Notes: generated from the letters alone by a model not told the origin. A stretch of 64,000 nucleotides of DNA from an uncultured delta proteobacterium (GCA_963804955.1 CAWDSQ010000005.1:160001-224000), one strand, 5' to 3'; counted from the stretch's first letter, positions 3,671 to 51,723 are shown. A program made the numbers and translations.

Positions 3671-3678
3671 GAAACAGT

Positions 3679-4460: not shown

Positions 4461-4591
4461 GTTTCTCCGGTTATTGATGCAAGGGGGGGGGCTGGCATCA
4501 GGACGTAATTTTTACCATTGCAGAAAAGCGGGTGCTCTGGTATTTTTTTAAACAATTCGGCAACAAAAACAAAACACGTATTGGAGGAACT

Positions 4592-14255: not shown

Positions 14256-14579
14256 ATACATTTTCCTTTCCTGATACATTAACAGTTTCGAGTTTACGGG
14301 TTTATTGATAGCAAAAATCACATAACATTTCCATGACAATACCATTAAAAATGTCTAATGTTTGCAGCAGCCCGCAGATAAACAATACTGCCTGAAATGT
14401 TCCTGCCGGTGTGCGCTTCGCTGCCTGTCACTGCTAGCACGTATGATCGGGGGAAATAGACTTTAAAAAAAACCACAATGCAACTTTATTGACTTTTTAT
14501 ACATAAAAAACTATTTTTAACTCAATTGACTCCACAAACTTCAGCTGCAGAATCGCGGTGCGGATACTAGTGGCCAAAG

Positions 14580-34154: not shown

Positions 34155-34261
34155 TTCAGCAGTTTTAAAAGCATCTGTTTCCCGGTATGACCCCGGCTTA
34201 AAAATTTTAAGCTGCAGTTCCGCCTTCTGTCCGCTCCGCAGTTTTGAATCTTGAATCATTC

Positions 34262-34390
34262 TCCCCGAACTCCCAACTCCACCAACCATCTGATGCTCCC
34301 AACTCAATCCGAACTCCAACCCTGAACTCCAACCCGAACTCCGAACCATCTGATGCTCCCAACTCCGAACTCCCAACTCCGAACTTCACA
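34262..34390. repeat. Degenerate heptamer tandem repeats (CCGAACT/CCCAACT) with two 22-bp copies
   Basis: Read directly; aaccatctgatgctcccaactc at about 34284 and 34344. Confidence 0.85.
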
Positions 34391-34750
34391 TCTCCGCCCC
34401 TGACCCTTAACCAATGCTAAGCTTTTTTAATAAAATAAAAAATCCCATTGAATAAAACACAAAATAATGGTTTGATGTTCAAACATTTTAAACTTACCCT
34501 GGGGGCTTCGTGAAAAGTAAGTTTATCATCTCCACCGCTGCTGCCACTAACGTACCACTGACACCTGATCCCCGAACCCTGACACCTAAAACAAGCGCTG
34601 CGCGGCGCGTATTCGCATGCCGGTCTATTAAAGCAAAACAGTCGGGAAAAACGAAATGGGGAAGTGTCTAAGTAGCGTGGTTCTTCATTGCGCTATACAG
34701 GCAAAAAAGTGGTGGCTGTTGTCTTTAATTATTTTCCAGGAGGAGCAGGC

Positions 34751-35557
34751 ATGCTGAAAAAAATACTTTTACGGACGGTAATCGTGCTTGCAGCACCACT
34801 GCTGCTTGCCGGCTGCACGATGTATGACAAAGATGCTATCATCGACGGCATCGAATTCGTGTACTGCCCGCCGGGGTCTTTTCTCATGGGCTGCCTGCCC
34901 GGTGAAGAAGGCTGCTCCACATCGGAGCAGCCGCAGCATACGGTGACATTCTCCAGCGGGTTTTATATTTCAAAATACGAGATCACGCAGAGGCAGTGGT
35001 TGGCGGTCATGGGAACGCGGCCATCACGCAATCGCCGGTTGCTGCTGTGCGCCACCGCCGATTCTCCCGTTGACAGCGTAACCTGGCCGGAAACCCAGGA
35101 GTTTATGACCGCTCTTAACGAGGCCCGGCCCGGCAGGCAGTATCGCCTGCCGTCCGAGGCCCAATGGGAATACGCCTGCAGGGCCGGAACGACAACCCGG
35201 TATTACTGGGGCGATGATCCTGATACTGCGCTCATGCCCGACTACGCCTGGGTGCCGGAGAACAGCCTCAGAAGGACGCATCCCGTGGGGCTGCTGGAGC
35301 CCAATGCCTGGGGCATTCACGACATGGGCGGCAATGTATGGGAATGGGTGCAGGATTACTGGTACAATGGGTATAACGGCGCGCCCGCCGACGGAACCGC
35401 CTGGGAGGCGGCCCCCTCGGAATTGCGCGTGGTGCGGGGCGGCAGCTACACGAATAACCGGGGCTGCCGTTCGGCTTTTCACGGCGGCTACAACCCGGAA
35501 ATACGCAACAGGGATTACGGTTTTCGCATCGTCTATAGCGGCACGGGCGCGCCCTGA
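34751..35557 (+). CDS. FGE-sulfatase (SUMF1) domain lipoprotein
   Basis: LLAGC lipobox, FYISKYEITQ, RLPSEAQWEYACRAG, DMGGNVWEW, RGGS, GFR. Confidence 0.92.
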   Translation: MLKKILLRTVIVLAAPLLLAGCTMYDKDAIIDGIEFVYCPPGSFLMGCLPGEEGCSTSEQPQHTVTFSSGFYISKYEITQRQWLAVMGTRPSRNRRLLLCATADSPVDSVTWPETQEFMTALNEARPGRQYRLPSEAQWEYACRAGTTTRYYWGDDPDTALMPDYAWVPENSLRRTHPVGLLEPNAWGIHDMGGNVWEWVQDYWYNGYNGAPADGTAWEAAPSELRVVRGGSYTNNRGCRSAFHGGYNPEIRNRDYGFRIVYSGTGAP

Positions 35558-35577
35558 AAAACCGGCAGCCGGAAGAA

Positions 35578-35645
35578 GGGTGGGTAAAACCCACCATCAA
35601 TGATTGAAATAACAGATGGGTTCCGCGACGCTGCACCCGCTACAG
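35578..35645. repeat. Degenerate REP-like doublet; relatives near 37358-37430, 39324-39441, 41317-41390, 44680, 48014
   Basis: gggtgggtaaaacccacca..cgctgcacccgctac; shares accatcaatgattgaaa with the 37375 copy. Confidence 0.6.
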
Positions 35646-35716
35646 ACTTATTTAAAAAACAACCGGGGCAAACGGAACAGTGAAGTGTCCCTGATTTTCG
35701 AAAGAGAAGGATACGC

Positions 35717-36000
35717 ATGCTGAAACTTGTGCCGGAAAATAAGCTGCTGCGCTTCGCGCTGGGCCTGTTCACGCTGCTGGTGCTGCCGGGCTGCGCGACC
35801 AGCCAATGGTGAGAATACAATCCGGCGCCAAACCGCCGGCAGATGCCTTCGTTGCGGTGAATTACAGTGATCACTGGTTCTGGATCGATAACAGCGACTA
35901 CCATTCCAAGGCTGTTTTCAGCTTTCTGATGCTGCTGACCTCGCTGGCCCAGACCGGCGTGGCGCCGCAAACACCCGTAATTACCGTTCCGGCTTCCTGA
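35717..36000 (+). pseudogene. Lipoprotein remnant: signal peptide fused out of frame to a C-terminal fragment
   Basis: MLKLVPENKLLRFALGLFTLLVLPGCATSQW* overlapping VRIQSGAKPPADAFVAVNYSDHWFWID..ITVPAS*. Confidence 0.6.
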
Positions 36001-36053
36001 AAAAAAACAGGCGGGTGAATTTGCGTGCGATAATTCCTTAAAACCTGTTGATT

Positions 36054-36074
36054 TGTAACAATTTTTTGGTTACA
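36054..36074. promoter_or_regulatory. Toxin-antitoxin operator palindrome
   Basis: TGTAAC-N9-GTTACA immediately before the toxin ATG. Confidence 0.6.
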
Positions 36075-36077
36075 TAT

Positions 36078-36344
36078 ATGGTATATGAAATTCTGGTCAG
36101 CAAAAAGGTTTTAAAGAATATTGAAAAAATGCCGGCGCCCGTTCAAAAGAAGCTGGTAAACCTTATTGACGACCTTCGTGACAGAGGGCCTCTGCGCAGT
36201 GAGTGGCCGAATTACAGCAAACTTGGAGCAGACAGCTATCATTGCCATCTTGCCCATAAGTGGGTTGCATGCTGGCAGTGGAGGAAACAGTCAATCATTA
36301 TAGAGGTGTATTATGCAGGCAGTCGTGAAAACGCCCCATATTGA
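36078..36344 (+). CDS. RelE/HigB-like toxin
   Basis: 88 aa, basic; YHCHL..WVACW..IEVYYAGSRENAPY; overlaps an HTH gene. Confidence 0.75.
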   Translation: MVYEILVSKKVLKNIEKMPAPVQKKLVNLIDDLRDRGPLRSEWPNYSKLGADSYHCHLAHKWVACWQWRKQSIIIEVYYAGSRENAPY

Positions 36345-36681
36345 CATTACGATACGCGGCAATATTCCGGAAAAACTTCTTTTGGCGCTGAAAAAAGAAT
36401 ATGGCCGGAAAGTCCGTATTGTTGATGACTCCGAGAATACCCTGCTGCGAGCTGTTGATACCGACTGGTATAAAAAAACAAAGGCCTCGATTCAGCCCGG
36501 TGACAATATGAAGCTCTACCGGGACCTGCATAAAATGACACAGGCTGAACTCGGCGAAAAACTCGGCGGCCTTCCCCGGCAGCATATTTCAAACATGGAA
36601 CGAGGCATGCGGGCCATCAGCCTTGCTACGGCAAAAAAACTGTCCGCTTTGTTTAAAGTCTCTGTTGAGCGGTTCATTTGA
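36313..36681 (+). CDS. XRE-family HTH antitoxin (HigA-like)
   Basis: MTQAELGEKLG..HISNMERG..AKKLSALF. Confidence 0.85.
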   Translation: MQAVVKTPHIDITIRGNIPEKLLLALKKEYGRKVRIVDDSENTLLRAVDTDWYKKTKASIQPGDNMKLYRDLHKMTQAELGEKLGGLPRQHISNMERGMRAISLATAKKLSALFKVSVERFI

Positions 36682-36746
36682 GGCCCAGTTAACGCAATAC
36701 CTGCAGCGTGTGTGCACCGCACACCATGGTGACGGAATAACCAATT

Positions 36747-37256
36747 ATGCAACTCATTTGTTGTACTAAAAAGCTGCAAAAAGAAATGGGCATCACCAAA
36801 TCCGCGCTCGCGGCAGCCTGGCCCTTGCATACCCGCCTCGGCCCATGGCACGCAAATCTTATTTTTATTGATCGGCGCAAATGCGCTCTGTTTACCAATG
36901 ATAAAACCCTTTTCAATTTCATCGCAGCTGATGTCTCTCGTGCTCAGATACGAAATCTTTCCGAATTGTTCAGGGGTTTTCTAACATGCGTGCTGGCTGA
37001 TGAGGGTTTCCCCCGGCCGGTCATAGAAGCCGTTATGGCCGAGCATGCTGATATCGCGTATGCCAATACCACTAGCAAAAGCGTGCTCGGCTCCATGAAT
37101 GATATAGCCAAAATGTATCACTATCATATTCTGTCCGAAGGCGGGGTACACAGCCCGGCGGTTCCGGCTATCATACGCCAGCTAAACCGAATGCCCTTGA
37201 GCGCTATCGGCTATGGCTACGCAATAGAGAAATTGAGAGCGCTGCTTTACAATTGA
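36747..37256 (+). CDS. Conserved hypothetical protein (DUF6933-like)
   Basis: CTKKL, LGPWHAN, SVLGSMND, LNRMP. Confidence 0.7.
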   Translation: MQLICCTKKLQKEMGITKSALAAAWPLHTRLGPWHANLIFIDRRKCALFTNDKTLFNFIAADVSRAQIRNLSELFRGFLTCVLADEGFPRPVIEAVMAEHADIAYANTTSKSVLGSMNDIAKMYHYHILSEGGVHSPAVPAIIRQLNRMPLSAIGYGYAIEKLRALLYN

Positions 37257-37577
37257 GCTGGCAGAGTGCTTGATGGGCAGGTTAGGGGACGTTGTTTACT
37301 TTGTTGAATTGCTTGCATGCGGGAGAGGAAAAGGGGAAAGCGCCCTTTAGTAAGAAGGCGGGGTTGGGGATACTACCATCAATGATTGAAAAAAAATCGG
37401 TTGGTTACGCTACGCTGCACTACCCTGCAGACTAGCCCTTTACGTGCCCATCCCGGCAGTCGTTCAAATTTTATTGACACCCGTTACCTCCTGGCGCATA
37501 CAATACAGAGAATGCCCCCCTCAAAGAGAAGACCGGCGCGCGCGTCGAACCAGGTAAACCAATCCGGAGGTGAAAAA

Positions 37578-38165
37578 ATGAAAGTATTGGGTTTTATGGC
37601 AAGTCCGAGAAAGGGCGGAAACTCAGACATGCTGCTTGAACGCTTTCTGGAAGGCGCGAGCTCTTCGGGTGCTGCAACGGAAAAGATCAGCCTCTATGAT
37701 TGCACCATTGAATACTGCCAGGGCTGCCACCTCAAATGCTGGGTTAACGATGACTGCTGCCCCCGGTGGCAGGATGACATGGACATGCTCCATGACAAGA
37801 TGGGCGCAAGCGATCTTCTCGTTTTTTCCTCGCCGGTGTATATGGGCGCGCCCCCGGCAAAGCTCATGGCGTTTTTTGAGCGGAGCATTGACCAGAAGAA
37901 AGTCAATCTTGAAACGCTGAAAGTGGAAAACAACAAGCTCCTCGGCAAAAAAGCGGTAGTGCTGCAGGTTAATTTTTTCAATGATACGGCGTACCAGAAG
38001 CTGCCCATGCTGGTGTATGCAAGGATACTCTCCGAAGTGTTCAAAATGAACATCGTCGGCAGCCTGGGCGTAGCGGATGTGAGAGAGCCCGGGGATATTG
38101 CTCGAAAGAAAGACTCCCTGCAGGAGGCCTATAACCTTGGCGCACAACTGTGCGCCCTGTCGTAA
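37578..38165 (+). CDS. Iron-sulfur flavoprotein (flavodoxin family)
   Basis: SPRKGGNS, CQGCHLKC..C, SPVY. Confidence 0.88.
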   Translation: MKVLGFMASPRKGGNSDMLLERFLEGASSSGAATEKISLYDCTIEYCQGCHLKCWVNDDCCPRWQDDMDMLHDKMGASDLLVFSSPVYMGAPPAKLMAFFERSIDQKKVNLETLKVENNKLLGKKAVVLQVNFFNDTAYQKLPMLVYARILSEVFKMNIVGSLGVADVREPGDIARKKDSLQEAYNLGAQLCALS

Positions 38166-38303
38166 TTGGCTGTATAATTATAAATTATAAGTAAAGGTTG
38201 CTTATTGACTCTTCTAAAATGCTTCAACCGGACTGCAAACTCCTGCTTTACTACTCTAAAGCACAGCCAGAATCAAAAACCCAACCGGCAAAAGGAAAAG
38301 CTC

Positions 38304-39320
38304 ATGAATACAGTTCTGATTAAAGTACCGCCCCTGGCTCTCATCCTCTTAACCGCTTTCGGCCTGTATTCCTGCGGCATGAAAGACAACAACCACTTTG
38401 ACGGCACCTGCACCGAGTTCAGCATGGATGGAAGCGGAGAGGATATACAGATCGACCGGGACCGGGGGCTGGCCTATATCTCTCTGTATGACAGGCAGGG
38501 CCTTGCAAACGATATACCTGTGCCGCCCGGTGACATCCTGGCGCTTGACCTGACAAAAACCCCTTTGGCAGGCACATCTGCACTTCTTGACGGGCCTGAA
38601 CTGCGGCCCCACGGCATAAGCCTGTTCATTGACCAGATCGGACAGCGTCATCTGTTTGTCATCAACCATCCGGAGGACCGCTCAACCGGTGCTGAAAAAA
38701 TTGAGCGCTACCGTGAAGAAACCCCCGGTGCATTCCGTCACGTCGAAACTTTTACAAGCCCCCTGATTACCCGTGCCAATGACCTGGTCGCTGTAGGCGA
38801 CCGCCAGTTTTATGTAGCCCAGGATGTTGACCGCTCAAGCGACGAAACACTGACCAGCCTTGTTTATTTTGACGGGGAAGACTACGCTGTGGCTGCAGAC
38901 GACATCCAGTCCGGCGGCGGCATCAATACGTCTGCTGACTACACGACCCTGTATATCTCCGAAACCAATGGAAAAACTATACGGGTTGTGTCCCGCGATG
39001 TATCTGATGGAAGCATTACTACTCTGCAGAATATAAACCTGGGCACCTCTCCTGACAATATCGATGTTGCCTCAGACGGTTCACTCTGGGTCGGCGCACA
39101 CTCCAAGGTTCTGGCACTGGTACTGCATTTCATCACCGGCAGCAAGTCTCCAACGCAGATACTGCGAATTGACCTCAGCGAATCAGAACCGCAGATTACA
39201 GAAATTTACCTGAATGACGGTGAAGAAATATCTGCCGGCAGCTGCGGCGCCACATACGGCAACACACTTCTGATCGGGTCCATCACTGCTAAAAAGCTGC
39301 TTATCTGTGAAATGGACTAG
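38304..39320 (+). CDS. Paraoxonase/arylesterase-like beta-propeller lipoprotein
   Basis: LYSC lipobox, GEDI, PHGISL, FVINH, NDL, PDNI, LWVGAH. Confidence 0.8.
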   Translation: MNTVLIKVPPLALILLTAFGLYSCGMKDNNHFDGTCTEFSMDGSGEDIQIDRDRGLAYISLYDRQGLANDIPVPPGDILALDLTKTPLAGTSALLDGPELRPHGISLFIDQIGQRHLFVINHPEDRSTGAEKIERYREETPGAFRHVETFTSPLITRANDLVAVGDRQFYVAQDVDRSSDETLTSLVYFDGEDYAVAADDIQSGGGINTSADYTTLYISETNGKTIRVVSRDVSDGSITTLQNINLGTSPDNIDVASDGSLWVGAHSKVLALVLHFITGSKSPTQILRIDLSESEPQITEIYLNDGEEISAGSCGATYGNTLLIGSITAKKLLICEMD

Positions 39321-39705
39321 CCCGCAGGTCGGGGTGAGGAACGAAACCCGACATCTTCATGCGGGAGCCATTGCGATTGAGCCCGGGGGCTGGTTTGATA
39401 GCTTTGATGTGTCGGGTTCGCTGCACTCAACCCAACCTGCGAACTAACCATTTTTCCGCATGGTACATTTATCCATCTGATGCCAACAGACATTTAATTT
39501 AAATAACCGGCGTTTGTTATTCTTTCTTCAAATGTCAAAGTTACCCCTCCTGCGAAAGCGTGAGAACAAAAAAACACCCTTTCCTTTACGATACTCCATT
39601 TAAGTGTTATTGAAATAACTGTAAGAACCGGAAACAGAGACCCAACGGGCACTGTATGTGTGCACCTGATGATTGTAAACACTTCATATGAAAAAGGGGA
39701 GAAGC

Positions 39706-40920
39706 ATGAAAAGAAACGCAGTATTGTTTTTGGTTGTTGTGGCAGTGATGTGCTTTACACGGCCCGCCGGGGCCGCCTTTACCAACCTCCTGCAGGACCC
39801 CGGTTTTGAAGCAAATACGCCCAATCCCTATTGGGATGAAGCCTCGACAAACTTCGGGACACCATTGTGCACGGGCGGGGCTTGCGGCACTGGCGCTGGA
39901 ACCGCAGGGCCGCGAACGGGTGCGGTCTGGGCCTGGTTCGGCGGCACAGCATCCTATGAGGCCGGGTCGCTGTCGCAAACCGTCACTATCCCCACCGGCG
40001 CTGCCAAGCTCGAATTTTATTTATGGTTCGGTTTAGCTGAACCAGGCAGCGATGCAACAGACCTGTTCAATGCCGAAATCGACAATGCCACCCTGTTTAC
40101 CACGAATGCGACTGAAATAGCCCTGTACCCGTCGTATACGCTGGTGAGCCTTGATGTCAGCGCTTATGCCGATAATGCTTCGCATACGGTGGTGTTTTCA
40201 TCGATAACCAGTGGCGAGACTGTAAATATCAACCTGGACGATGTGGCCCTGCTCAGTGAACCACCGGTTACTTTGAATATTGTAAAGTCCGGCGCCGGAG
40301 CCGGCACGGTTGCCAGCGCCGACGGCAAAATCAACTGCGGCAGCGACTGCACCGAAGAATATATACAAGGCACGGAGGTGAAGCTTACCGCAGCGGCTGC
40401 TCCCGGCTCAATCTTTACCGGCTGGAGCGGCGAGGGATGTTCGGGGCTGGATAACTGCACGCTGACTATGACTGATAATATGACCGACAATGGTACCGTG
40501 ACGGCGAATTTCGATGTGGCTGCAACGACAACAACCACGACTGCCTCGGCCTGTATTGACAATGACGGCGACGGTTATGGCGAGGGCTGCACCGCAGGCG
40601 ACGACTGCGACGATGACGATGCCTTTTATAGTGAAGTCTGCCCGGACTGCGAGGTGAAAATCATACCCAGGGCCCTGGGCTGGTTTCTGGGTGAAAAAGA
40701 AAAAACCCGGCGCCTGCTCGTCATCGGCAAGAGGAGTACGGAGTTTGACGACACAACGCCGGTTCGGTGGGAGTCCGGTGATATAACCGTGTTGAGCCAA
40801 CGCGTATTGTTTAAGCGGTTCATGTTTATGAAGGTGAGTGTTGACGGCGCAGCACTTGATAAGGGAGCGTACCGGGCACTGATAGGAACATGCTCGGCAA
40901 CACTGAACCTGGTGAGGTGA
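39706..40920 (+). CDS. Secreted modular protein (beta domain, InlB-B-like repeat, Thr linker, DxDGDG/Cys motif, 90-aa C-terminal domain)
   Basis: Signal peptide; GAGTV..INCGSDC..FTGWSG; CIDNDGDGYG..DCDD. Confidence 0.8.
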   Translation: MKRNAVLFLVVVAVMCFTRPAGAAFTNLLQDPGFEANTPNPYWDEASTNFGTPLCTGGACGTGAGTAGPRTGAVWAWFGGTASYEAGSLSQTVTIPTGAAKLEFYLWFGLAEPGSDATDLFNAEIDNATLFTTNATEIALYPSYTLVSLDVSAYADNASHTVVFSSITSGETVNINLDDVALLSEPPVTLNIVKSGAGAGTVASADGKINCGSDCTEEYIQGTEVKLTAAAAPGSIFTGWSGEGCSGLDNCTLTMTDNMTDNGTVTANFDVAATTTTTTASACIDNDGDGYGEGCTAGDDCDDDDAFYSEVCPDCEVKIIPRALGWFLGEKEKTRRLLVIGKRSTEFDDTTPVRWESGDITVLSQRVLFKRFMFMKVSVDGAALDKGAYRALIGTCSATLNLVR

Positions 40921-41443
40921 TCCCTTAAAAACGGCACAACTGGTAACAAGAAAGAGGGGTCAGACGGCTGCCCCCTCTTCATTAAAAAGGGGACAACAGC
41001 GCCCTTTAGGGAAAGCGAATAATCGGCCAGCAGGTGCAGGTTTGCATCCCGCTCTTCGATAAGCCCGCCGATGCGCCGGGGGAACACCAGCACCGAGCAC
41101 TCGGTACAGTTGTCATGCCCAGAAGTCCGCAGGGTGCGCCGTGCGCACCAATGACGGCTGTGGCGTGGATTATTGTGTTGCTATGTCAACGGTACACAAA
41201 ATCCGGTTGCCGGGGTGATTGTGTATTTTGATTGAGATTATTGGTGCTCACTGCGCACACTGCGGACTAAAACATAAAACCTGCCGCCTATCTCTTCATC
41301 ATCGGCGCAAGCTGGCAGGGTGGGTGCAACCCGCCATTAATGAATACATCAAATGAACCGGTGGTTTCGCTGCGCTGCACCCACAATACGGCTGTCAAAC
41401 TCTGCGAGCCCCCCGGCAGAGCCGGGGGGCTCGCTTTGATTAA

Positions 41444-41950
41444 TTACTCGTCCCGATCAACCAGAAACTCTCCGGCCCCTCCAAAATTGCCTATAAATGC
41501 AAAACCGATGGCAAAGCCCCATTTGCCCGAATACGAGACCATTACTTTATTTTCGCTCACACCCGGGCCGTCGAGAAGAAGAATAGCGCAGGTGCCCGGG
41601 CCGCAGCCGCCGGATGCAAGCGTCAGCTTGCCTTGAGCATCCATGAGCCCCGAGACAAGCACCTCCGAAGCCGCAGGAGCCGGAATTCCTGAAGGCCAGC
41701 CTGATGTTTCGGTCAGGCACTGGTAATCAACCTGCACGGTGCCCCTGACTGTCATGTTATCGGAAGGATACTGCGTAAGTGTCATGGTCAGCGGGCACTC
41801 GATAGTCTCTTTCGTCACATTGTCCAGAAATGACCATTGACCGGTGTAGGAGCCTGTGGCATCGTATGGAGCCGTGCATGAAGAACACAAGCCCGATGCA
41901 ATGAGTGCGAGCAGCGTGAGGCAGCATAGATAAGAAGATTTACTTTTCAT
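41444..41950 (-). CDS. Hypothetical lipoprotein
   Basis: Hydrophobic leader ending CSSC; paired Cys; RBS upstream. Confidence 0.65.
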   Translation of the reverse strand: MKSKSSYLCCLTLLALIASGLCSSCTAPYDATGSYTGQWSFLDNVTKETIECPLTMTLTQYPSDNMTVRGTVQVDYQCLTETSGWPSGIPAPAASEVLVSGLMDAQGKLTLASGGCGPGTCAILLLDGPGVSENKVMVSYSGKWGFAIGFAFIGNFGGAGEFLVDRDE

Positions 41951-42687
41951 ACATATCCCCTTTCCTGGTTGAAAATATTTAATCACTGCTGCTTAAAACA
42001 ATCTGAATGAAACTGTTTTAAACAGCCGGTTGCACTACGTTGTTGTGATGGATCTATATGCTAAAGAACATATAAAATCCGGAATCGTTTCTGTTTTTTG
42101 TGTGGCACGCACAACAGCCAGTAATTATTTTACAATTAAAACAGCCCGCATCCCTGCAAACCGTACCAGCTCTGCTAGCACTACGACTAGAGAACCCTTT
42201 TTGCCTCTCATGACTCCTTTTCGTGGTTCTTTTTATCGGTTTTTTAAAATAATGTACTGTTTCAAAAAAAGCGCATGCTCTGATGCAGAGCAGTCCGCGG
42301 CTCTCCGCATGCAGCCATACTCGCTTATACAATTACATTATTGAGCGAATTACTTTGATTGAAAGTACGCCCTGCCCGCCGGTATAGTCACCCCTGCCGG
42401 ACAGGCAAAACTGAGTTAATTAAAGATGCAATACATGTGCCTAAAAAAGGTGACCTGCGGTCGAAAAAAAATAGGGGCTTATAAAATAAAGATAATACAA
42501 ATGGTTGAAAAATAATAAAAACATATGCCGATGGTGAGGCCTCCCGGGCCAAAAAAACAATTGGCTGATTGCAGCCAAAGAATTGCAGTTTCACGCCTCA
42601 TATTGGCTGAAATCAGCCAATTGCGGACATGGTAAAATTAATCGGGGACACTAAGGGGCGTCCCATAAATAAATTAATAACTTATTA

Positions 42688-42913
42688 TGGTTATCTCCAA
42701 AGCTGAACCTGTGTATGGTCGTTAATTTCATCGCACAATTTTGTCATTTCGACCGCAGGGAGAAATCTTAGACTGAAGTGAAATTATGGCGTTAGGATTT
42801 CTCATCCCGCTTTCAGCGGGATTCGAAATGACAGCAAGAGCAATTACAACAAAACAAAGGGTACATAAGCTGGTGTCCAGAATAAGGGGTTAGTTCAGCT
42901 TCGGAGATAACCA
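42688..42913. mobile_element. 226-bp MITE-like element with 21-bp TIRs around a TGTCAT..ATGACA palindrome
   Basis: tggttatctccaaagctgaac / gttcagcttcggagataacca (20/21); core 42742-42833. Confidence 0.7.
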
Positions 42914-43109
42914 AAAACCATATAACAACAAAAAGCACTGAAAAAATCGGGGGCTTTTTTTTGATGTTTCCTGCTTGCACCCTTTTTTGAGACAGCTAAA
43001 TCATTATTCCCGTCATTGCAGATTGAAATGTAAAACGCCTTTTGCTAAGCTCCGAAAAAGTATTGAAGTACTGAGCGTGTACCCTTTTCCCTAATCAATC
43101 AGAGGGTCT

Positions 43110-43631
43110 ATGAATAAAACCCGTTTTGTCATTTTCCTGATATTCTTCTTTTTTTTCTCCACCGCACTATCCTCTGCAGAACTGCGCCAAGCCGCGGGTA
43201 ATTCTGGTGGTATTACCGGTATGGTCATGCATACTGACATATCAGCGGGGAAAGTGGATACAGCCGCACTGCAGGTTCCCGGAAAAAGCACAGCACGGGC
43301 AGGCGGCCTTTCGCAGATTGTATATGAGGGGAATACATATACCGTGCTTACGTGCCGTGATCTCACACAGAGTGCAAAAAATTTTGACAATGAATCTATC
43401 GCGATACAGGCCGCGCATATCCGGAAAACAGATTTCTATGATGCCTATCGCAGACAAATTTTTGTCAGCGACCGCACCGGCAGGTATGAGCGCATATTTG
43501 TTGAACTGTATTCGCCCTTGTCTGCAGTGTTGGAGAACATGGAAGGCAAGACCGGTACCTTGTATGGCTCTCTTCAGTGCAAGCCGTCATGTGGTTCCTT
43601 TATTGTTACCCGATGGGAGATCAAGGAGTAA
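43110..43631 (+). CDS. Hypothetical exported protein
   Basis: Signal peptide; 173 aa. Confidence 0.6.
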   Translation: MNKTRFVIFLIFFFFFSTALSSAELRQAAGNSGGITGMVMHTDISAGKVDTAALQVPGKSTARAGGLSQIVYEGNTYTVLTCRDLTQSAKNFDNESIAIQAAHIRKTDFYDAYRRQIFVSDRTGRYERIFVELYSPLSAVLENMEGKTGTLYGSLQCKPSCGSFIVTRWEIKE

Positions 43632-43766
43632 AAAAACAGGCATTGGGAACCCACAACGCGTCACATCTTAGATTAATCAGGGACTAAAAAGTTTGGCATA
43701 AACATAAGGCACATATACTGGCGAATAATTAATATTTAAGACCCTGAATTTTCCTGAATTGATAAC

Positions 43767-44450
43767 GTGATATTCGAGAATTTGATAAAATCGTGCAGAA
43801 CCAGCGTGCCGGGATTTGTCATCAGCGCGGCCCTTGCCGTCTATGAGCAGTGGAACCTGCAGGAGTTCTGCTGGAGCTTCTGGATTTGCGGGCTGCTGTA
43901 CTGCTGGTGTTGCGTGGCCGCCGGCTGTATCCGCATTATGCTTCCGTCGGGCCGCGAGATCCTTGTTCGCATGATAGCGGAAAAAGAGCCTCTGCGCTTT
44001 ATGCAGTCAATGCCGCAATCGGCCGTTTTGCCTGCCATGGCCTGCCTGTCATGCATCATCGGCTGGCTGGCCTTCTATGCCTATTCTTACCTATTTTCTT
44101 TTTACGGCCTTTTCCTGTCCGTATTTGCGGAGATGGAACCATCCAGTCTGTTCGGCAGAAACGGGTTTATCAATTCCGATTTTTTCACGCCGGTAACCTA
44201 TCTTGTGGAGCGGTGCTGGCCCATGGCGCTGGGGTCGGTTATCGCCGACCGCGCATACCTCTTTCGCAGCAGCCCCTGGAAGCTGCTGCTGAAGCCCTTT
44301 TCACGGCAGATCGTTGTCATTCATATCGCGGTCCTTATGATGCCCTTTGTCACCCTGCTGAGCTGGATGCTGTTCAAAGAGGCCTATCAACCCCTCACCA
44401 TGATATTTCTGCTTGCAGTATTTTATTTTTTTCCCCGGAAGGAGAACTGA
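43767..44450 (+). CDS. Hypothetical multi-pass membrane protein
   Basis: Several hydrophobic segments. Confidence 0.7.
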   Translation: MIFENLIKSCRTSVPGFVISAALAVYEQWNLQEFCWSFWICGLLYCWCCVAAGCIRIMLPSGREILVRMIAEKEPLRFMQSMPQSAVLPAMACLSCIIGWLAFYAYSYLFSFYGLFLSVFAEMEPSSLFGRNGFINSDFFTPVTYLVERCWPMALGSVIADRAYLFRSSPWKLLLKPFSRQIVVIHIAVLMMPFVTLLSWMLFKEAYQPLTMIFLLAVFYFFPRKEN

Positions 44451-44490
44451 ATAACGATATCTTTGCAGGGACACGAGGAAAGGGAAAAGG

Positions 44491-44730
44491 GGACAACAAC
44501 GCCCTTTAAGGGAAAGCCAATAATCGGCGAGCAGGCAGTAATGTGGCTTTGTTGAATTGGTTATGTCATTATCATTCCGAGGGACAAGAGGGGGAGGAAA
44601 TTAAGGACACTTTCCTGTTTAGCCCGGCCATAAAATGAAGCGGGAGCAGAATTGAAACTGCCCCCGCTTTTTATTCGGTGGGCATAGCCCACCCTGCATC
44701 TATATCTTACCGCACCATGTGAACGGTGCC
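44491..44730 (+). repeat. ~240-bp non-coding direct repeat, copy 1
   Basis: Colinear with 47828-48065; partial copies at about 40991-41034 and 37326-37350. Confidence 0.92.
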
Positions 44731-44855
44731 TGGGACCTTCAAACTAGGGGCCGTTGTTGAATTGGTTAAATTGCTTACGTTACAGTCAACTCTTTACGGG
44801 AGCTGAAAACATCCCTTGTTTAGGGTCTGCACATTCACATGTGAAGCCAATACTT

Positions 44856-45413
44856 CTACGGCTGCGGGGTTAATTCAATCTTATCGGGATTAAACCCGCG
44901 ATCTGCCAGCTGTTGAACAAGTTCGGTATAAAACTGATCGTCCATGGCCGGTGTTCTGCTCAGGATGTACAAGACACTCTTCCCGGGATTTGAAACCACA
45001 GCATAATCATAGTTTTCCCCCAGATCAATAATCCAGTAGGGAAACTCAAATTTCTCAATGCTGGCTCGATCAAAGCGCACCGCAAGTTTGGCGTTGGTTC
45101 TTTGGTCTACTACGCGGGCAACGCCCTGGATGCTGGTAGGCGCCCCGTCAAGTGACCCCACCCGGCCCTGGTTAAGGACACTGACGGTTCCATTATCATT
45201 GAGCGTGTAGAGAGCGGTAACCGCCACGGCATTTTCATCAAACGATGTTGGATAGCGGGCTATTTCATACCAGAGCCCGGCATAGCGCTCAAGATCAACA
45301 TAATCTACTGTTTTCGGCGGCAGCAGCTTGCACCCTGCAACAAAAACAATACAAAACAGCATGCTGAGCATTACCTGAAAACTTTTTGATACATGCTTTT
45401 TGTGGCCCATCAT
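44856..45413 (-). CDS. blc: Lipocalin lipoprotein (Blc family)
   Basis: VAGC, VDLERYAGLWYEIAR, YWII, YILSRTP. Confidence 0.92.
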   Translation of the reverse strand: MMGHKKHVSKSFQVMLSMLFCIVFVAGCKLLPPKTVDYVDLERYAGLWYEIARYPTSFDENAVAVTALYTLNDNGTVSVLNQGRVGSLDGAPTSIQGVARVVDQRTNAKLAVRFDRASIEKFEFPYWIIDLGENYDYAVVSNPGKSVLYILSRTPAMDDQFYTELVQQLADRGFNPDKIELTPQP

Positions 45414-45441
45414 AAACCCTTCCTCTATTGTTTGTTGCCGG

Positions 45442-45732
45442 TTAATGTGATGCCGGTATGTCTTCCATGGGCATGGGATTACAGAGGCTGGCTCGGTTGT
45501 CGGCCATCCTGCCGCAGTTCATGCACATGCAGTCGGGCTTTTTAGCAAGCTCCTTGATGAGGTCGAACCGCTCATTGCCGGCGATTTCGCAAAGGTGCTG
45601 CGTATGGTCGCCGGAGCATTTTTCGCAGATGCAGGGGCAGTTCTCTATCAACACGAAAATAGACCGGAAATTTGACAAGCCTGCCCGCGTCCGGATGCAC
45701 GCATTGGTCGGTGATCTTGCGGATTTCTTCAA
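45442..45732 (-). CDS. Small Cys/His-rich putative metal-binding protein (start uncertain)
   Basis: CEKCSGDHTQHLC..CMNCGR..LCNP. Confidence 0.55.
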   Translation of the reverse strand: MKKSARSPTNACIRTRAGLSNFRSIFVLIENCPCICEKCSGDHTQHLCEIAGNERFDLIKELAKKPDCMCMNCGRMADNRASLCNPMPMEDIPASH

Positions 45733-45825
45733 GTAATGGCCCTGATGTCTCCTGCTTTGTTTTGTGGAGATAGAACCGCCTGCCGCCCGCGCTCTTCTGC
45801 AAAAGCATATACCTTCAAAGATGCA

Positions 45826-46323
45826 TTATTTAGGCAGCAGTACTGTATCAATAACATGAATCACTCCATTGCTGCACATAATATCTGTTTTCGTTACCTT
45901 GGCATTATCAACCATAACAGTTCCGTCCATAACGGTTATCTTCAGCTCCTGACCATTGACAGTTTTCGCGGTTTTCAGTTTGGTAACATCTGTAGCCGTC
46001 ACTTTACCCGAGACCACATGATACGTCAGGATGCCCTTCAGCTTTTCTTTGTTTTCCGGTTTAAGTAAATCATCAAGAGTTCCTGCCGGTAATTTAGCAA
46101 AAGCCTCATCAGTGGGGGCAAAAACTGTGAATGGTCCCTTACCCTTCAATGTCTCCACTAATCCAGCAGCTGTTAATGCTTTGGCCAGGGTATTAAATGA
46201 TCCTGCGGCAACAGCTGTATCAACTATATCTTTTTTATCATGGCTTTTTGCCCACCCATTTGTGGTAATTGTAAATATGAATAAAAATGCAACTAATGAA
46301 TAATTAAAAAATAATCTTTTCAT
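45826..46323 (-). CDS. Fasciclin (FAS1) domain protein
   Basis: [33 protein letters not shown]; visibly AT-richer than its neighbours. Confidence 0.95.
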
Positions 46324-46746
46324 AAAATTGCTCCTTTTAAATAAAATAAATTAATTAATAAAGTTTAGTCTTAACTCTTTAATGCAACTTCCGTTAATAA
46401 TTTAAAACTATTGCGCAATAACCTCCTTCCCTTTGTCATATATTAGTATAAAAGAAAAACAGCACTCTGAATCATTATTGTTCAGTGTGCGTCTTTAAGG
46501 TTTTAGATACAGGGGGTATGACTGTGGTATATAGATTAATAAATTCGTATGCGCAAGTCGCAAAACGCAGAATATGTGGTAGCGGGAATAGGCTGGGGGA
46601 ACGTTGATGGCTTTGTTGAATTGCTCAGCAAGAAAAAAGCTGCACCGGCTTGGACCAACCAGGTGACGGTGTGGACACATTGTACAGGCTAAATCGGCCC
46701 CGTACCCTGCAGTCTACTACATGATTCCGGGCAAGCCGGAGTAGAA

Positions 46747-47673
46747 TCATAGAAGGTCTGGTCTGACGCTTTGCACAGGATCAGCATCCGCCGGCAGTGC
46801 TGCCGGGCTCAAAGCAGCCCTTCGGAATACCGGCTCGGCAGGAAAGAGATCGTCTCGATTGGCCATCAACTCCTCGCAGGTGTCAAGGTCGTCGGCAACG
46901 GGGACAAGTAGTATGGGGCTCAGGCCCGGGTCCTCATATTGCGGTGGGCTGCTTGGCATATTCAGGATGTTCAGGGTTGCGCCGATAACGAGTTGCTCTG
47001 ATGTGTCGACAACATGGCCGTAGAGACTGCCGTCAGAGTAAAGGGTGAGAAAGTTCTGAAAAATCTCGCGGCGCGCAATGTAGAGTTCGGCTTTGATGAG
47101 GCCGTAGAGCGTGAGGTGCACGGTGACGCCGGGCTTGCCGTCTCCGTCGTCATCGTTTATGTTCGGATCGTCGGGATTCAGGGAGAGTGGCTGCCAGGGA
47201 TCGCCGTCTATCCCGATGAGGGTTGGCGTGGCCGGGCGCACTATTTTCCAGGCCCCGCCGTCCTGAGACACCTCCACTGTTGCCGTGCGCGGCTTAATAG
47301 CCTGTGTGGCCGCATCGTTGAGGTTCGCGGTAAAGGGCTGATTGTTTTTGTTCACGGAAAAACAGAAACGGTCGGTTTCGACGAGATCATTTCCCTCCAC
47401 AGTAAAGTCGGTGAAGCCGTAAGAAATGATAAAGGTCCGCATCGGCCCGGCAGGCGTCTGGCCAATGTAGGCAACTATGTCGTAGTGGGCGTAATGGCCC
47501 TGAATGGCTGCCTCGGCCTCTGCAGCGGTGGCCGGAGGCACCCAGTCAGGGTCGTTATCCGGCGGCTCATAGAGGGGGCTGTCAGGCCACGGCTTTTGCG
47601 TGCACCCTGTTGTAAAAGACCAGCAGAAAATCAAACTGCTGAAAATCAGCATGCGCAGAAATGTTTTGTGCAT
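46747..47673 (-). CDS. Hypothetical lipoprotein with DxDGDG motif
   Basis: Leader ending TTGC; DDDGDGKPGVT. Confidence 0.7.
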   Translation of the reverse strand: MHKTFLRMLIFSSLIFCWSFTTGCTQKPWPDSPLYEPPDNDPDWVPPATAAEAEAAIQGHYAHYDIVAYIGQTPAGPMRTFIISYGFTDFTVEGNDLVETDRFCFSVNKNNQPFTANLNDAATQAIKPRTATVEVSQDGGAWKIVRPATPTLIGIDGDPWQPLSLNPDDPNINDDDGDGKPGVTVHLTLYGLIKAELYIARREIFQNFLTLYSDGSLYGHVVDTSEQLVIGATLNILNMPSSPPQYEDPGLSPILLVPVADDLDTCEELMANRDDLFPAEPVFRRAALSPAALPADADPVQSVRPDLL

Positions 47674-47827
47674 TGGAAAAACCCTTTTTTCCTGCTGATG
47701 CAGTGCGGCAGGCATTTGCTGTATCCGGCCGGCCCCAAAACCCCGCGTATATTCATTTAGTAGCAGGAAAATTGATATAAAGCAATCCACGGGAAACCGG
47801 AGCAGGGCCATTAGGGGGAATAATTAT

Positions 47828-48065
47828 GGACAACGCCCTTTAATGGAAAGCCAATAATCGGCGAGCAGGCAGTAATGGGGCTTTGTTGAATTGGTTATGT
47901 CATTATCGTTCCGAGGGACAAGAGGGGGAGGGAATTAAGGACACTTTCCCTATTTAGTCCGGCCATACAATGATGCGGGCGCAGCACTGAAACTGCTCCC
48001 GCTTTTTATTCAACGGGCATAGCCCACCCTGCATCTATATCTTACCGCACCATGTGCAGGGTGCC
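47828..48065 (+). repeat. ~240-bp non-coding direct repeat, copy 2
   Basis: Colinear with 44491-44730. Confidence 0.92.
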
Positions 48066-48126
48066 GGTGCAATTATCAACCGTTACCGTATAATCTCCCT
48101 TTTCAACCAGCGTGCCGCCGCCCGTT

Positions 48127-48185
48127 CAGGAGCAATTTCTTTGACACCGCAGCCCGGTATATCTTATACTGCAAAAAATTAACCG
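48127..48185 (+). promoter_or_regulatory. Sigma70 promoter, duplicated at 50977-51034
   Basis: TTGACA-N18-TATACT in both copies, with shared flanks. Confidence 0.75.
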
Positions 48186-48307
48186 CCAATCTGAAGGGTA
48201 GGCTGCGCCCGCCATTTTTATCTATTTCAAATGAACCGAAGACAATATAAATCTTGCAGGAACTGCGCGACAGCGCCAATATAAATCTACAAACCAGGGA
48301 GTGCCCG

Positions 48308-49972
48308 ATGCTATCAGGAGATTTTAGAAAAGCGGTTTTTTGTGTTTTTATTACTGTCTGGCCAGCGCTGCTCTTGCCGGCACTTCCCCTGCATGCCGCA
48401 GCTCCTCCGGGGACCAATACAAATCCGTTTACTGCCTTCAATCATGACTATGTGCTTATAGCTCTGGGCGACAGCCTGACCCAGGGCGCAATGGATGGCA
48501 TTATTAACTTCAAAACGATCCCCCACGCGTATCTGCAAAGAGTTCATGAATCGCTTGCGCAGGTGCAGGATATCGAACTTGTGCAGCCGCTGCTCGACAT
48601 GGCCGGAAAGCGTATGGCGCCCTTCGCCATCCCGACAAATCTTGCCGTCGGCGGCGCAGGCATCCTCAACATGGATGGTTTCAGCTACGGCAAGCGTGAG
48701 ACCACCGGGCACAAGATCCGCAGCAAAAGGTTTCTCTGCAACAGCCTGCTGCCCGCGAACTTTGAGGATCTCTATGATATAACGCTCTATCCCTACAATC
48801 TCCTGCAGGGCGGGCCAGCGTCACAGATCGACAGCGCTGTCTGGCTGCTCAATTACATACATCGCCACCAGACTGCCCGCGCCGTATGTATTTTGTGGAT
48901 CGGGGCTATTGACGTCGGCTATGCCGCTATGGGTTATGGCTATGGCCATCCTGTTTATGCATTGCTGCCGCTTACCTTCATAGAAAACGTATTGTCGCCC
49001 GGTGCGGCAACATTGCTGCGCCTGGGACAGGCCATCGGCGCGGTCTCCTTTGAGCCCTATACGATGGAGGCCATCGAGCACAACCTCACGGACCCGGCCG
49101 AATTTGCAGCGCAGTATGAGCAAACCCTTGCCAGGCTTGAACAGGGCGTACCCGGTTTTTATGAAACCACCGATCTGTTTGTCTGCACCCTGTATGACAT
49201 CTGGGCCTCGTATCTGTTTGATTCCAATGACCTTGAATTTTATCTGCGCAAGCTTGATAAGCAGTACACGGTGCCGGCAACCTTCGCCCGCGCTCCAGCC
49301 ACGGGGGCATGGGACACCGCTGCACCCCGCGGCGACCGCATAGGGCTCCTCACCTTTTTGTGCATGTACGCGCTGTTCAGCACGGGCGCTGATGCGCAAA
49401 CCGTGAACCAGATACTTGAGGTCGATGGCGTGCAGAATGACGGCCTGGTATTATCGGAAGACGAGCAGGCGCTTCTCCACGAACGCACTGCTGCGTATAA
49501 TGACGCCATCAGGAAGGCTGTGCAGAAACGGGCGGGCAAGGTCCATCTGATTGATATCGGACCCTGGCTTACTGATATATTAACCGACAACGAATCTTAT
49601 AAAGCAGGGGAAAAGAGCATCACCAGCAAATGGGGCCGCGGCGGCTGGTTTACCCTTGACGGCGTGCATCCCGGCCATACCGGTCAGGCGCTTATTGCCA
49701 ACAAAATTATTGAGAACATAAACGGGGCCCTGGGCTGGCATGCGCCCCCTGGCGATATGAGTGCCGTTGCTGCAGATGATCCCTATATTGATAATGACGG
49801 TGACGGCTGGCCAGCCGGTCCGGATTATGATTCTATCGGTCCCACCGGCATGTTTTTCCTCTTCAAAGATCCCGATGACACTGACCCTTTAGTGCTGCCC
49901 GAGCTTACCGCTGATTTCTGGAGCAGGCTTTCCGACGTCATCAAGCTGATCGCTTTTAAGCAATATCCGTAA
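48308..49972 (+). CDS. Secreted SGNH/GDSL hydrolase
   Basis: ALGDSLT, NLAVGGA, DGVHP. Confidence 0.85.
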   Translation: MLSGDFRKAVFCVFITVWPALLLPALPLHAAAPPGTNTNPFTAFNHDYVLIALGDSLTQGAMDGIINFKTIPHAYLQRVHESLAQVQDIELVQPLLDMAGKRMAPFAIPTNLAVGGAGILNMDGFSYGKRETTGHKIRSKRFLCNSLLPANFEDLYDITLYPYNLLQGGPASQIDSAVWLLNYIHRHQTARAVCILWIGAIDVGYAAMGYGYGHPVYALLPLTFIENVLSPGAATLLRLGQAIGAVSFEPYTMEAIEHNLTDPAEFAAQYEQTLARLEQGVPGFYETTDLFVCTLYDIWASYLFDSNDLEFYLRKLDKQYTVPATFARAPATGAWDTAAPRGDRIGLLTFLCMYALFSTGADAQTVNQILEVDGVQNDGLVLSEDEQALLHERTAAYNDAIRKAVQKRAGKVHLIDIGPWLTDILTDNESYKAGEKSITSKWGRGGWFTLDGVHPGHTGQALIANKIIENINGALGWHAPPGDMSAVAADDPYIDNDGDGWPAGPDYDSIGPTGMFFLFKDPDDTDPLVLPELTADFWSRLSDVIKLIAFKQYP

Positions 49973-50161
49973 GAGCTCCACAGAGGGCAACAATGGGTAT
50001 GCTGTTGCATTTGTTGAATTAAGCAACTGAATTAATCAGGGACAACAGCCACTGCTTAATTTGCAACAATAAAACGGTACCAATACTGTTGGAGAGGGAA
50101 GGGCGCTGCAGAGCAGGTCCTCAGAGCCTGACGTATCAAGGCCGGGCTGCGGCAGCGAGCT

Positions 50162-50761
50162 TTATTTATGCCGCCGGGATTGCTGTAATAAATAAAACAG
50201 GAGCATCTTGCGGTCTATAGCGTTTTGGTCGAGATTGCCATCGCTGTAATCAAGCAGGTGGTCATGCTTTGGTGTGTCAGCCCCCGGCGCCTGCGTGTCC
50301 GTGCAGGCAGGGTCAAAAATTTCAGAAGGGTAGCCCTGCCAGGCTGGGCTTGTGAACCCGCTGCTGCCGGCAGTGTAATAAACGGTAAAGTCCGCTGCGC
50401 AGTTGGTAAAAACATCAGCCCCCATCAGTGGCGCATTCCCGCTGAAAAATGCGCTTGTGAGGTTGGCGCAATCAGAAAATGCCGCATCCTCAATGCTGGT
50501 AACGCTGTTCAGGATAAGTATGCTCTCCAGGCTCAACTGCCCGGCAAAAGCACAATTCCCAATGGTGGCAACCGGCTTATTGTCAATGGTATCCGGGATT
50601 ACAACAGACCCGCCAGAACCGGTATAGCCGGTGATTATGATTGCGGCAGTGCCGCTCGATACCGTATATGTAAAATCAACCAGCTGCGCTGCAAAGGCCG
50701 ACGGCAACAGAAACACACAACCGGTTAAGGTTACAATGAATGCCGTTTTTCTGAAGTGCAT
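50162..50761 (-). CDS. BspA-like leucine-rich-repeat exported protein (short, possibly truncated)
   Basis: ITGYTGSGGSVVIPDTI, SVTSIEDAAFSDC, FSGNAP. Confidence 0.75.
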   Translation of the reverse strand: MHFRKTAFIVTLTGCVFLLPSAFAAQLVDFTYTVSSGTAAIIITGYTGSGGSVVIPDTIDNKPVATIGNCAFAGQLSLESILILNSVTSIEDAAFSDCANLTSAFFSGNAPLMGADVFTNCAADFTVYYTAGSSGFTSPAWQGYPSEIFDPACTDTQAPGADTPKHDHLLDYSDGNLDQNAIDRKMLLFYLLQQSRRHK

Positions 50762-51115
50762 AGGGCCCTCTTTGGAATCTGTTTATTCCCGTTCACTAAC
50801 AAGCCATAAACCAATGAGCTTGTCGGTCAACGCCACACTCTTTACTATCAGTATAGCATGGAATAAAGAAGGCGGAATTAACCGGGAGAAAGCATACTGA
50901 CTCTTCACCCTCATCCCCGTAAGTGGCGCAGAGGGAATGTCTCTGCAGAGCAGATCTTAAGAGCCTGCCGCCCGCACAGGAGCAATTTCTTTGACACAGC
51001 AGGCGGGCATAGCCTATACTGAATAAATTAACCGTTGATTTGCATGGCTGGCGCAGCCCACTCTACGGTCTTTGTTTCTTTGAATTATGTAACCCCACGT
51101 GTAAGGAGTAAGGTA

Positions 51116-51481: not shown

Positions 51482-51723
51482 GAGCTGCTGTAAAAACAAA
51501 AAAGGCGGAGTCGTAGTCGGCTCCGCCTTTTTCCTGGCCCCCCTTTTTTTATCGCCGCCGGCCATAAGCACGGCAGCCTGCGAATGAACCTCGTTATGCG
51601 CATGTTTATATTTAACTTGACGCACAATCGCCCCCAATTTATAGTCTGTCCGTATCAATGAAAGTTCCCGGTAGCCATTCCTGGCAGTCTCCCGCACTTC
51701 ATAGCATAAGGAGGGACCCTTCC

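Follow-up and report, generated by a model that had tools for sequence, protein, structure and literature searches.

Short polar repeats in a shuffled bacterial gene island as probable orphan ends of TIRtron-family elements

The window analysed here, 64,000 nucleotides of an uncultured delta proteobacterium (GCA_963804955.1, CAWDSQ010000005.1:160001-224000), contains an accessory island in which unrelated, mostly single genes are separated by short polar repeats, the subject of this report. The genome carrying the window (G000) is assembled to 4.26 Mb in 36 contigs and is 87% complete, and the window lies on contig C5, where it includes a repeat cluster at 197-210 kb. The island encodes proteins matching the Pfam families FGE-sulfatase, HTH_3 (antitoxin-like), DUF6933, FMN_red, SGL/arylesterase, Flg_new_2, lipocalin, fasciclin, GDSL, LRR_5 and HHH_3. 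As a first-pass annotation of the sequence had read it, these are unrelated genes of mixed orientation and composition, lying on both strands with a G+C content per kb of 0.41 to 0.60. Gene maps throughout are crude picks of the longest open reading frames (ORFs).

The island and its repeat unit

The 10-mer TTGTTGAATT is present exactly six times in the window, at 37301, 44549, 44754, 46613, 47883 and 50011, always on the + strand and always between long ORFs, as first reported; the expectation from shuffled sequence is 0.25 copies, and none of 100 shuffles reached six. The only ORFs overlapping any copy are two short ones of 61 amino acids, both on the − strand (46495-46680 and 49825-50010). 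The 10-mer, which had been taken for the repeat itself, is real and yet not the unit. Alignment of the six sites gives a common core of only ~30 nt, the repeat search returns GGGGACGTTGTTTACTTTGTTGAATTGCT and its relatives (family D3), and the true unit of ~30–45 nt consists of a GGGGAC box and, behind it, a pair of 9-bp direct repeats (GTTGTTGAATTnGTTGAATTGC), with a partial tip duplicate often preceding the outer GGGGAC tip. In the units at 37301, 46613 and 50011 it is the second 9-bp repeat that carries the 10-mer; at 44754 it is the first, and at 44549 and 47883 the 10-mer is embedded in a 235-nt duplicated element whose first half-site is degenerate. The GGGG(A/C)..CGTTG leaders described at 37285, 44747 and 46596 are present.

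A second motif, GGGGA..CGCCCTTTA, had been described at four places. It corresponds to a ~50-nt repeat at 40985-41034, 44485-44535 and 47837-47869 (families D5, D17 and D18); a weaker copy lies at 37330-37352. A loose regular expression for this motif was not enriched in the search (7 matches, against 9 for the reversed control), so the copy reported at 37333 is less secure than the others. At the end of the 235-nt repeat (families D1 and D2), a G+C-rich hairpin precedes TTTTTAT (44590-44675 and 47925-48010); this is possibly a small transcript or a carried terminator, and Rfam returned no match for it.

Single-stranded DNA folds of the window copies (n = 10, both strands) had z-scores of −1.8 to +1.5 relative to shuffled sequence and contained no hairpin; with no fold better than the shuffles, the copies are neither REP hairpins nor attC-like, and the contig carries no integrase, in agreement with the initial view that these are not attC sites.

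Table 1. Features of the repeat family and of the gene modules. Positions are those of the window unless a G000 contig (C) is given; units 1 to 4 are listed as probable orphan terminal inverted repeats (TIRs).
Feature	Position	Strand	Description
Probable orphan TIR unit 1	37269..37313	+	Degenerate tip copy, GGGGAC box 37285-37290, two 9-bp repeats 37291-37312
Probable orphan TIR unit 2	44731..44775	+	GGGGCC box 44747-44752, then doublet; between convergent genes
Probable orphan TIR unit 3	46582..46625	+	GGGGGAAC box, then doublet
Probable orphan TIR unit 4	49980..50023	+	Degenerate box GGGTAT, doublet with 4 mismatches
235-nt repeat, copy 1	44496..44730	+	Second-motif element, half-degenerate TIR (10-mer at 44549), terminator-like hairpin and T run; 92% identical to copy 2
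235-nt repeat, copy 2	47830..48065	+	10-mer at 47883
Second-motif element	40985..41034	+	AAAAGGGGACAACAGCGCCCTTTAGGG...; GGGGAC tip of another repeat type
Module A	43755..44478	+	227-amino-acid gene; located and ordered differently in G003 (95% identical)
Module B	44816..46581	−	Lipocalin, 380-bp piece, fasciclin; 94% identical to G003
Module C	46658..47793	−	354-amino-acid gene; 93% identical to G003
Module D	38170..39320	+	SGL/arylesterase-like gene; 95% identical to G003
Examples of 9-mer arrays in G000	C7:534497-534680, C7:492405-492466, C19:49363-49554, C20:96715-96784, C22:29369-29432, C17:6197-6319		Tandem copies of a similar 9-mer

Y1/HUH genes bounded by the same repeat

The same sequence forms the ends of Y1/HUH transposase genes among 31 related genomes (G-numbers), all of them draft or metagenome assemblies, with G001 and G003 being congeners of G000. 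In G012 (contig C139), an ORF of 322 residues, P0001, has two + copies of GGGGACGTTGTTGAATAAGTTGAAT before it and one − copy after it, and the 18-mers compared at each end are identical, with 0 mismatches. The right-hand copy overlaps the stop codon of the transposase gene, and the first 9-mer of the left-hand TIR supplies a −35 element, TTGAAT, 17 nt upstream of TATAAT as read from the sequence. P0001 matches the Pfam family Y1_Tnp (E = 1.2e-10; 42.1 bits against a cut-off of 23) and, at 57.5 bits, scores under the 80-bit cut-off of the NCBIfam model REP_Tyr_transpos; a phmmer search of PDB sequences with P0001 returned no match. Its C-terminal tail, residues 258–322, gives only sub-threshold matches, to Sigma70_r4_2 (E = 0.0013), Bac_DnaA_C (E = 0.011) and HTH_23 (E = 0.011).

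Homologues of P0001 were found in 27 of the 31 relatives. At 21 of the 25 homologue loci examined, the gene is bounded by inverted repeats starting GGG(G)AC; three loci have none, and one is cut by a contig end. Behind GGG(G)AC the TIRs diverge by subfamily (GTTGTTGA.., GTCCATGAATAAATGAAT, GTAGGTGAATAGGTGCAT, GTTGTTACTTACGTTGCA and GCCCTTAAG..), and small duplications of the outer tip occur at many of these loci. An alignment of 24 of the proteins shows conservation of the HUH motif (NHxH) and of RYKSI with its tyrosine. Copies facing each other 100–1000 bp apart are present in G011 and G005, a tandem pair was also seen among the relatives, and within one facing pair all that is left of the transposase is a C-terminal piece (65% identity to residues 263–319). 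At the G005 locus (from contig C138; locus positions 2370-4590), inverted TIR copies enclose a vapBC pair, and a second TIR pair holds only the last ~57 codons of the transposase gene; a duplicated 3′ fragment of vapC sits directly outside the pair holding the remnant, so that the element end is joined to a truncated gene.

This arrangement is that of the published "TIRtrons", in which RAYT-like genes termed TIRYT lie between TIRs with the tip consensus GGGGWSAS, and in which TIR families are described as singles, dimers and clusters in the available text of Di Nocera, De Gregorio and Rocco (2013; PMC3733652). TIRYT proteins correspond to TnpA-Y1 subclass 2.1, with Bac_DnaA_C or helix-turn-helix (HTH) tails, in the available text of Quentin et al. 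(2018; PMC6006769). The likeness extends to the RAYT-like Y1/HUH gene placed, in the relatives, between non-palindromic TIRs with a GGGG-led tip, to the C-terminal HTH-like or DnaA_C-like tail, which is represented here by the sub-threshold profile matches, and to the occurrence of gene-less TIRs as singles, dimers or clusters. On this evidence the motif is probably part of a ~30-base TIR of the TIRtron family, and the window copies are then transposase-less, orphan TIRs. The TIRs here differ from those of published TIRtrons in that their body consists of two 9-bp direct repeats. For the second-motif element, the comparison made was with the TIR GCGGGACGCCCTTAAG of a TIRYT gene in G021.

Y1_Tnp genes are present in G000 on contigs C30 and C20 only, and there is none in the window, as the first-pass annotation had also noted in suggesting a Y1/HUH (RAYT-like) enzyme acting in trans, a suggestion that the present findings support. 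The C20 gene is a split TIRYT gene (65011-66109) with TIRs of type GGGGACGTCCATGAAT.., and the C30 gene, encoding 233 amino acids, is flanked by AAAGGGGACGGTTCT; the ends of neither gene match the doublet TIR. The congener G001 has a gene 67% identical, with TIRs GGGGACGTTCTTGACTTTGTT.. and GGGAACGTTGTTGACTACGTT.. that are near those of G000 orphans such as the one at C5:61291. As the G000 assembly is 87% complete, its copies are either orphans or served by an unassembled gene.

Copies of the unit are clustered in G000 and are not confined to the window. There are 22 exact copies of TTGTTGAATT genome-wide, and a search with a 22-mer (≤5 mismatches) gave 66 matches, ~20 of which are GGGGAC-led units; the others belong to long tandem arrays of a similar 9-mer before genes or are due to chance. 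Besides the window cluster, GGGGAC-led units cluster on C5 at 61 kb, on C7 at 258-270 kb and 442-450 kb, and on C11 at 103-114 kb, with single copies on C8, C21, C29 and C30, and their flanks are not conserved. The other clusters are likewise accessory islands, with HigB/HTH pairs, ParE, Fic, MqsA-like, SocA-like, nucleotidyltransferase, WYL, HNH and LRR genes. Among 21 G000 copies, an upstream ORF ends before the copy at 14 and the downstream ORF is on the opposite strand at 14; 12 lie between convergent ORFs and 5 between divergent ones. Copies standing mostly behind genes or between convergent ones have a REP-like position and not a promoter layout. Orientation is uniform within clusters, with seven + copies on C5 and six − copies on C7; relative to GC skew, the count is 16 co-oriented copies to 5 opposed ones, or only 7 to 4 by cluster, from which no clear relation to replication polarity emerges.

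With ≤3 mismatches allowed, the 22-mer was found in 16 of the 31 relatives, which belong to several genera, and its reversed control in none of the 31. Motif positions are not orthologous between congeners. TIR unit 1 (window 37274-37319) is 89% identical to positions 10006-9961 of a G003 locus, L009, with unrelated flanks on both sides, and the stretch TTGTTGAATTGGTTATGTCATTATC... of the first 235-nt copy lies behind a complete TIR at position 6096 of the same locus. The C7 island is also a mosaic in G001–G004, where an isolated 80-nt TIR segment is kept between unrelated flanks.

Module order, mechanism and competing explanations

Single-gene modules make up the island as a mosaic, and each population compared shows them in a different order. 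In G003, modules A–D are on one contig in another order, with the array inverted and 93-95% identity. TIR copies of its own, sharing a single orientation, are found in that array alongside a Y1_Tnp gene that is frameshifted and has different ends. Its flank maps to C24 of G000 and not to C5, so there is no clean pair of filled and empty sites. Module D in G003 sits between two direct TIR copies, and in the window it has a TIR at neither end.

Nine module ends were compared at the base level between the window and G003. Two of them, 46581 (the end of module B homology to G003) and 49979 (the end of homology of the GDSL gene to G003:C28), coincide to the base with a TIR unit's outer edge, 15–16 nt before the box, where the partial tip duplicate begins. 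Ends 44478 and 47793 lie 11–20 nt before a second-motif box, ends 44816 and 46658 lie 41 and 33 nt behind a TIR, and no TIR occurs within 100 nt of 38170, 39320 or 43755. In G003 the doublet TIR is missing from the matching ends of modules B and C, the left end of module B instead carrying an inverted pair of C30-type tips (GGGGACGGTT...AACCGTCCCC), and no module keeps its flanking copy elsewhere. Junctions thus attract TIR elements of several subfamilies, and a gene and its TIR are not one moving unit.

Further gene orders were seen in metagenome contigs from four runs (X1–X4), which represent mixed communities and were placed at a likeness of at least 90%; the best run contained 0.20 of the sampled words, and coverage gaps are uninformative. 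Boundaries at 39320, 44478, 49979, 41124 and 45437/45813 recur, with 44478 found in X2 and X3, 39320 in X1 and X4, and the 49979 joint in X2. A 2801-nt contig of X2 joins 40996 to 44752, skipping 3755 bp, with one ambiguous base and almost no homology at the joint, which leads from just behind the GGGGAC of a second-motif element into the GGGGCC box of TIR unit 2. It is the sole joint with both ends in boxes, and the inferred junction sequence was found in 0 of the 31 relatives.

The first-pass annotation had proposed that the sites delimit captured cassettes. The expectation that gene content and order would differ between relatives held, and some of the breakpoints are at the motif, but others are at no TIR. 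The cassette claim itself is not supported, with three of the nine ends lacking a copy within 100 nt, modules that do not keep their copies and other repeats at other junctions. Nor is a gene-capture system needed to explain the sites, for which orphan TIRs of an already published class suffice. Gene capture by a dedicated system at these sites is not shown; the repeats are a further case of the known TIRtron kind and not a demonstrated gene-capture system.

A TIRtron is a ~1.1-kb unit with a single TIRYT gene, encoding a RAYT-like Y1/HUH single-stranded DNA (ssDNA) transposase with a C-terminal HTH. The HTH tail may bind the 9-mers, and the HUH/Tyr centre would cut and rejoin one strand at or beside the GGGGAC tip, as suggested by the HUH chemistry of the family, the tip duplications and the single box-to-box joint in X2. 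TIR copies would then be spread in trans, in a REP-like manner, by a cognate enzyme of the type known from the congener, and would establish themselves or persist in dispensable spacers, chiefly after the stop codons of genes. Most of the shuffling would be ordinary repeat-mediated and illegitimate recombination of the accessory region, to which TIR tips may contribute occasional, perhaps enzyme-made, junctions.

Several points weigh against reading the copies as TIRtron ends scattered in this way. The tip here, GGGGACGT, fits GGGGWSAS at only six of eight positions, the DnaA-like tail of P0001 is a sub-threshold Pfam match only, and a cognate TIRYT gene for the doublet TIR was not found in the G000 assembly. 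The accessible parts of the TIRtron literature report no TIRYT biochemistry. Plain REP-like scatter leaves the uniform orientation within clusters unexplained, and the breakpoints at TIR tips, together with the X2 joint, could mean a more active role of the TIRs.

Such a role is the essence of an explanation by Y1-driven shuffling, a sharpened form of the first-pass proposal that we regard as unlikely: a TIRYT would cut one strand just 3′ of GGGGAC, releasing any DNA between direct boxes as a single-stranded circle that could be inserted behind another box. It accounts for boxes keeping one orientation across 13 kb regardless of gene orientation. The same single-gene modules in other orders in G003 and the four metagenomes, the box-to-box joint 40996/44752, the module ends at TIR outer edges (46581 and 49979) and the recurrence of 49979 and 44478 in independent assemblies also agree with it, as do the position of module D between direct TIRs in a G003 array that holds a Y1_Tnp gene and the vapBC pair between inverted TIRs in G005. 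However, only one joint runs from box to box; of the nine ends, four lie 0–20 nt outside a unit, two 33–41 nt inside and three have no TIR closer than 100 nt. The absence of TIRs from the matching ends of modules B and C in G003 indicates that gene and site travel separately, and other junctions carry other repeat families (D4/D7 units, the 41124-41270 piece and D6/D10). The joints come from the mixed-community contigs, the X2 junction recurs in no relative, and no cognate enzyme was found in G000. That direct arrays of orphan TIRs serve as an integron-like ssDNA platform for module shuffling in Desulfobacterota-type anaerobes, without attC hairpins or a tyrosine integrase, is correspondingly improbable.

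REP/REPIN sequences (REPs) are spread in trans by a single-copy Y1 enzyme, RAYT (TnpA_REP), the gene of which is flanked by REPs in inverted orientation, and they share with the present repeats their small size and an intergenic position mostly behind genes. They differ in being hairpins with a GTAG or CGTC tag, whereas the window copies have no fold and this tag is absent from the window units, and in numbering hundreds of copies, as opposed to ~20 in G000. In the IS200/IS605 model (IS608 and ISDra2), the moving DNA is bounded by a pair of recognition elements that point the same way on a single strand, a feature borrowed by the shuffling explanation. These insertion sequences share the Y1/HUH chemistry, but have subterminal hairpins and no TIRs and insert 3′ of a fixed tetra- or pentanucleotide, whereas here TIRs are present and hairpins absent. 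G000 also departs from published TIRtrons in having only orphans of the doublet subtype, in one orientation per cluster and at module junctions; arrays of orphan TIRs at the junctions of shuffled modules are not reported in the available text of PMC3733652 or PMC6006769.

It is very doubtful that the repeats are operators or promoters, where a host regulator would bind the 9-bp repeats and control the accessory neighbours, the transposase link reflecting autoregulation only. Two direct 9-bp repeats do resemble an operator for tandem binding, the first repeat provides the −35 element in the G012 TIRtron, a similar 9-mer (TTGGTTCAA / GTTGAATTA) forms long tandem arrays directly before start codons at ~25 G000 loci, and the motif is conserved across several genera. 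Against this, convergent ORFs surround 12 of the 21 copies and divergent ones only 5, the orphan copies have no conserved −10 element, inverted copies bound both ends of Y1 genes and of deleted remnants, and positions are not orthologous between congeners. Inspection by eye for sigma-70, sigma-54 and ECF promoters found neither a −10 nor a −12 element conserved at a suitable distance behind the orphan copies.

Least credible is an atypical attC cluster lacking an integrase (CALIN) and served by an integron integrase elsewhere. In its favour, polar sites between mostly single, unrelated genes, including a toxin-antitoxin-like pair, recall an integron array, and the best integron-integrase-like (IntI-like) gene of G000, on C32, is interrupted and aligns with TIGR02249 as two segments (183 and 132 bits, both under the 265-bit cut-off). 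Against it, the window sites do not fold as attC, R''/R' inverted cores are absent, genes occur on both strands and are not accompanied by their sites elsewhere, no tyrosine integrase is nearby, and Y1 elements demonstrably end in this very sequence. Tyrosine recombinase or integrase matches (PF00589, TIGR02249) are absent from C5, occurring only on C8, C20, C22, C32 and C35, and no serine recombinase was found in G000. A crude scan combining RYYYAAC...GTTRRRY with folding gave 0 candidates in the window at 33-53 kb and in the C7 island; having also shown no array beside the IntI-like gene on C32, it lacks a positive control.

TIRYT/TIRtron elements are common in the genomes of anaerobes, yet the family has been little studied. 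The present case defines the anatomy of the TIR, with its GGGGAC tip, duplications of that tip and two 9-bp boxes as long as a DnaA box; it also offers candidate cognate enzymes in the G001 and G012 genes, and a natural setting, a hypervariable island with orphan ends at its seams. Gene order would change by a route distinct from that of integrons if these ends were active cut-and-join sites; if inactive, they would be REP-like litter, useful mainly as markers of flexible regions. Published TIRYT sets (supplements of PMC3733652 and PMC6006769) may already include relatives of the doublet subfamily.

Other repeats in and around the island

No tRNA genes were found, and Rfam models gave only a sub-threshold STnc40 match (51498-51574) over 30-55 kb. 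Within module B, the 380-bp piece at 45437-45813 has sharp, recurrent boundaries and an 87% identical copy at G000:C11:101714-102094; copies also exist in G001, G004 and G016, loose contig ends occur at both of its edges in run X1, and contig C48 of G003 has 3.3 kb inserted at the position matching 45812.

A miniature inverted-repeat transposable element (MITE)-like sequence at 42665-42916 has 24-bp terminal inverted repeats (92% complementary) and five near-full copies in G000; its 92-nt structured core (42742-42833) is found at ~25 further places, one adjoining the IntI-like gene of C32. That gene (C32:99791-101287) is interrupted by ~0.7 kb with two small ORFs, eight small same-strand ORFs (C32:101469-107435) come after it on the other side, and the whole may be a decayed chromosomal integron. 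At 42656-42679, GGGGCGTCCCATAAATAAATTAAT looks like a decayed orphan TIR of a second TIRYT subfamily (GGGGACGTCCATGAATAAATGAAT), that of the split gene on C20.

An intergenic repeat family at 35577-35650, 37375-37433, 41315-41384 and 48195-48238 has the form GGGTGGGT..ACCCACC-ATCAATGA... followed by GGTTNCGC..CGCTGCACCC..CTACAGAC; with GTAG on the reverse strand, it is possibly a classical REP-type unit, and metagenome contigs join its copies (35609 to 41363). Two direct-repeat pairs, 48117-48177 / 50967-51027 (84%) and 50093-50133 / 50930-50970 (83%), are nested about the GDSL and LRR genes. A promoter-like site, TTGACA-N17-TATACT, is present in the first pair, and the layout looks like the footprint of insertions by short-repeat recombination.

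The tandem arrays of the 9-mer consist of 3–10 copies of a unit resembling the 9-mer of the TIR, often form inverted pairs ~100 nt apart and end ~10–20 nt from start codons. Short repeats of the CCGAACTCC type together with a 250–310-nt element occupy 34219-34665, with no transposase gene behind them; the same combination recurs before Y1 genes at G000:C30:144.9-145.2 kb and at 14350-14450 of the G003 locus, and is also present at C5:53.1-53.5 kb, C5:60.7-61.0 kb and C1:128.0-128.3 kb.

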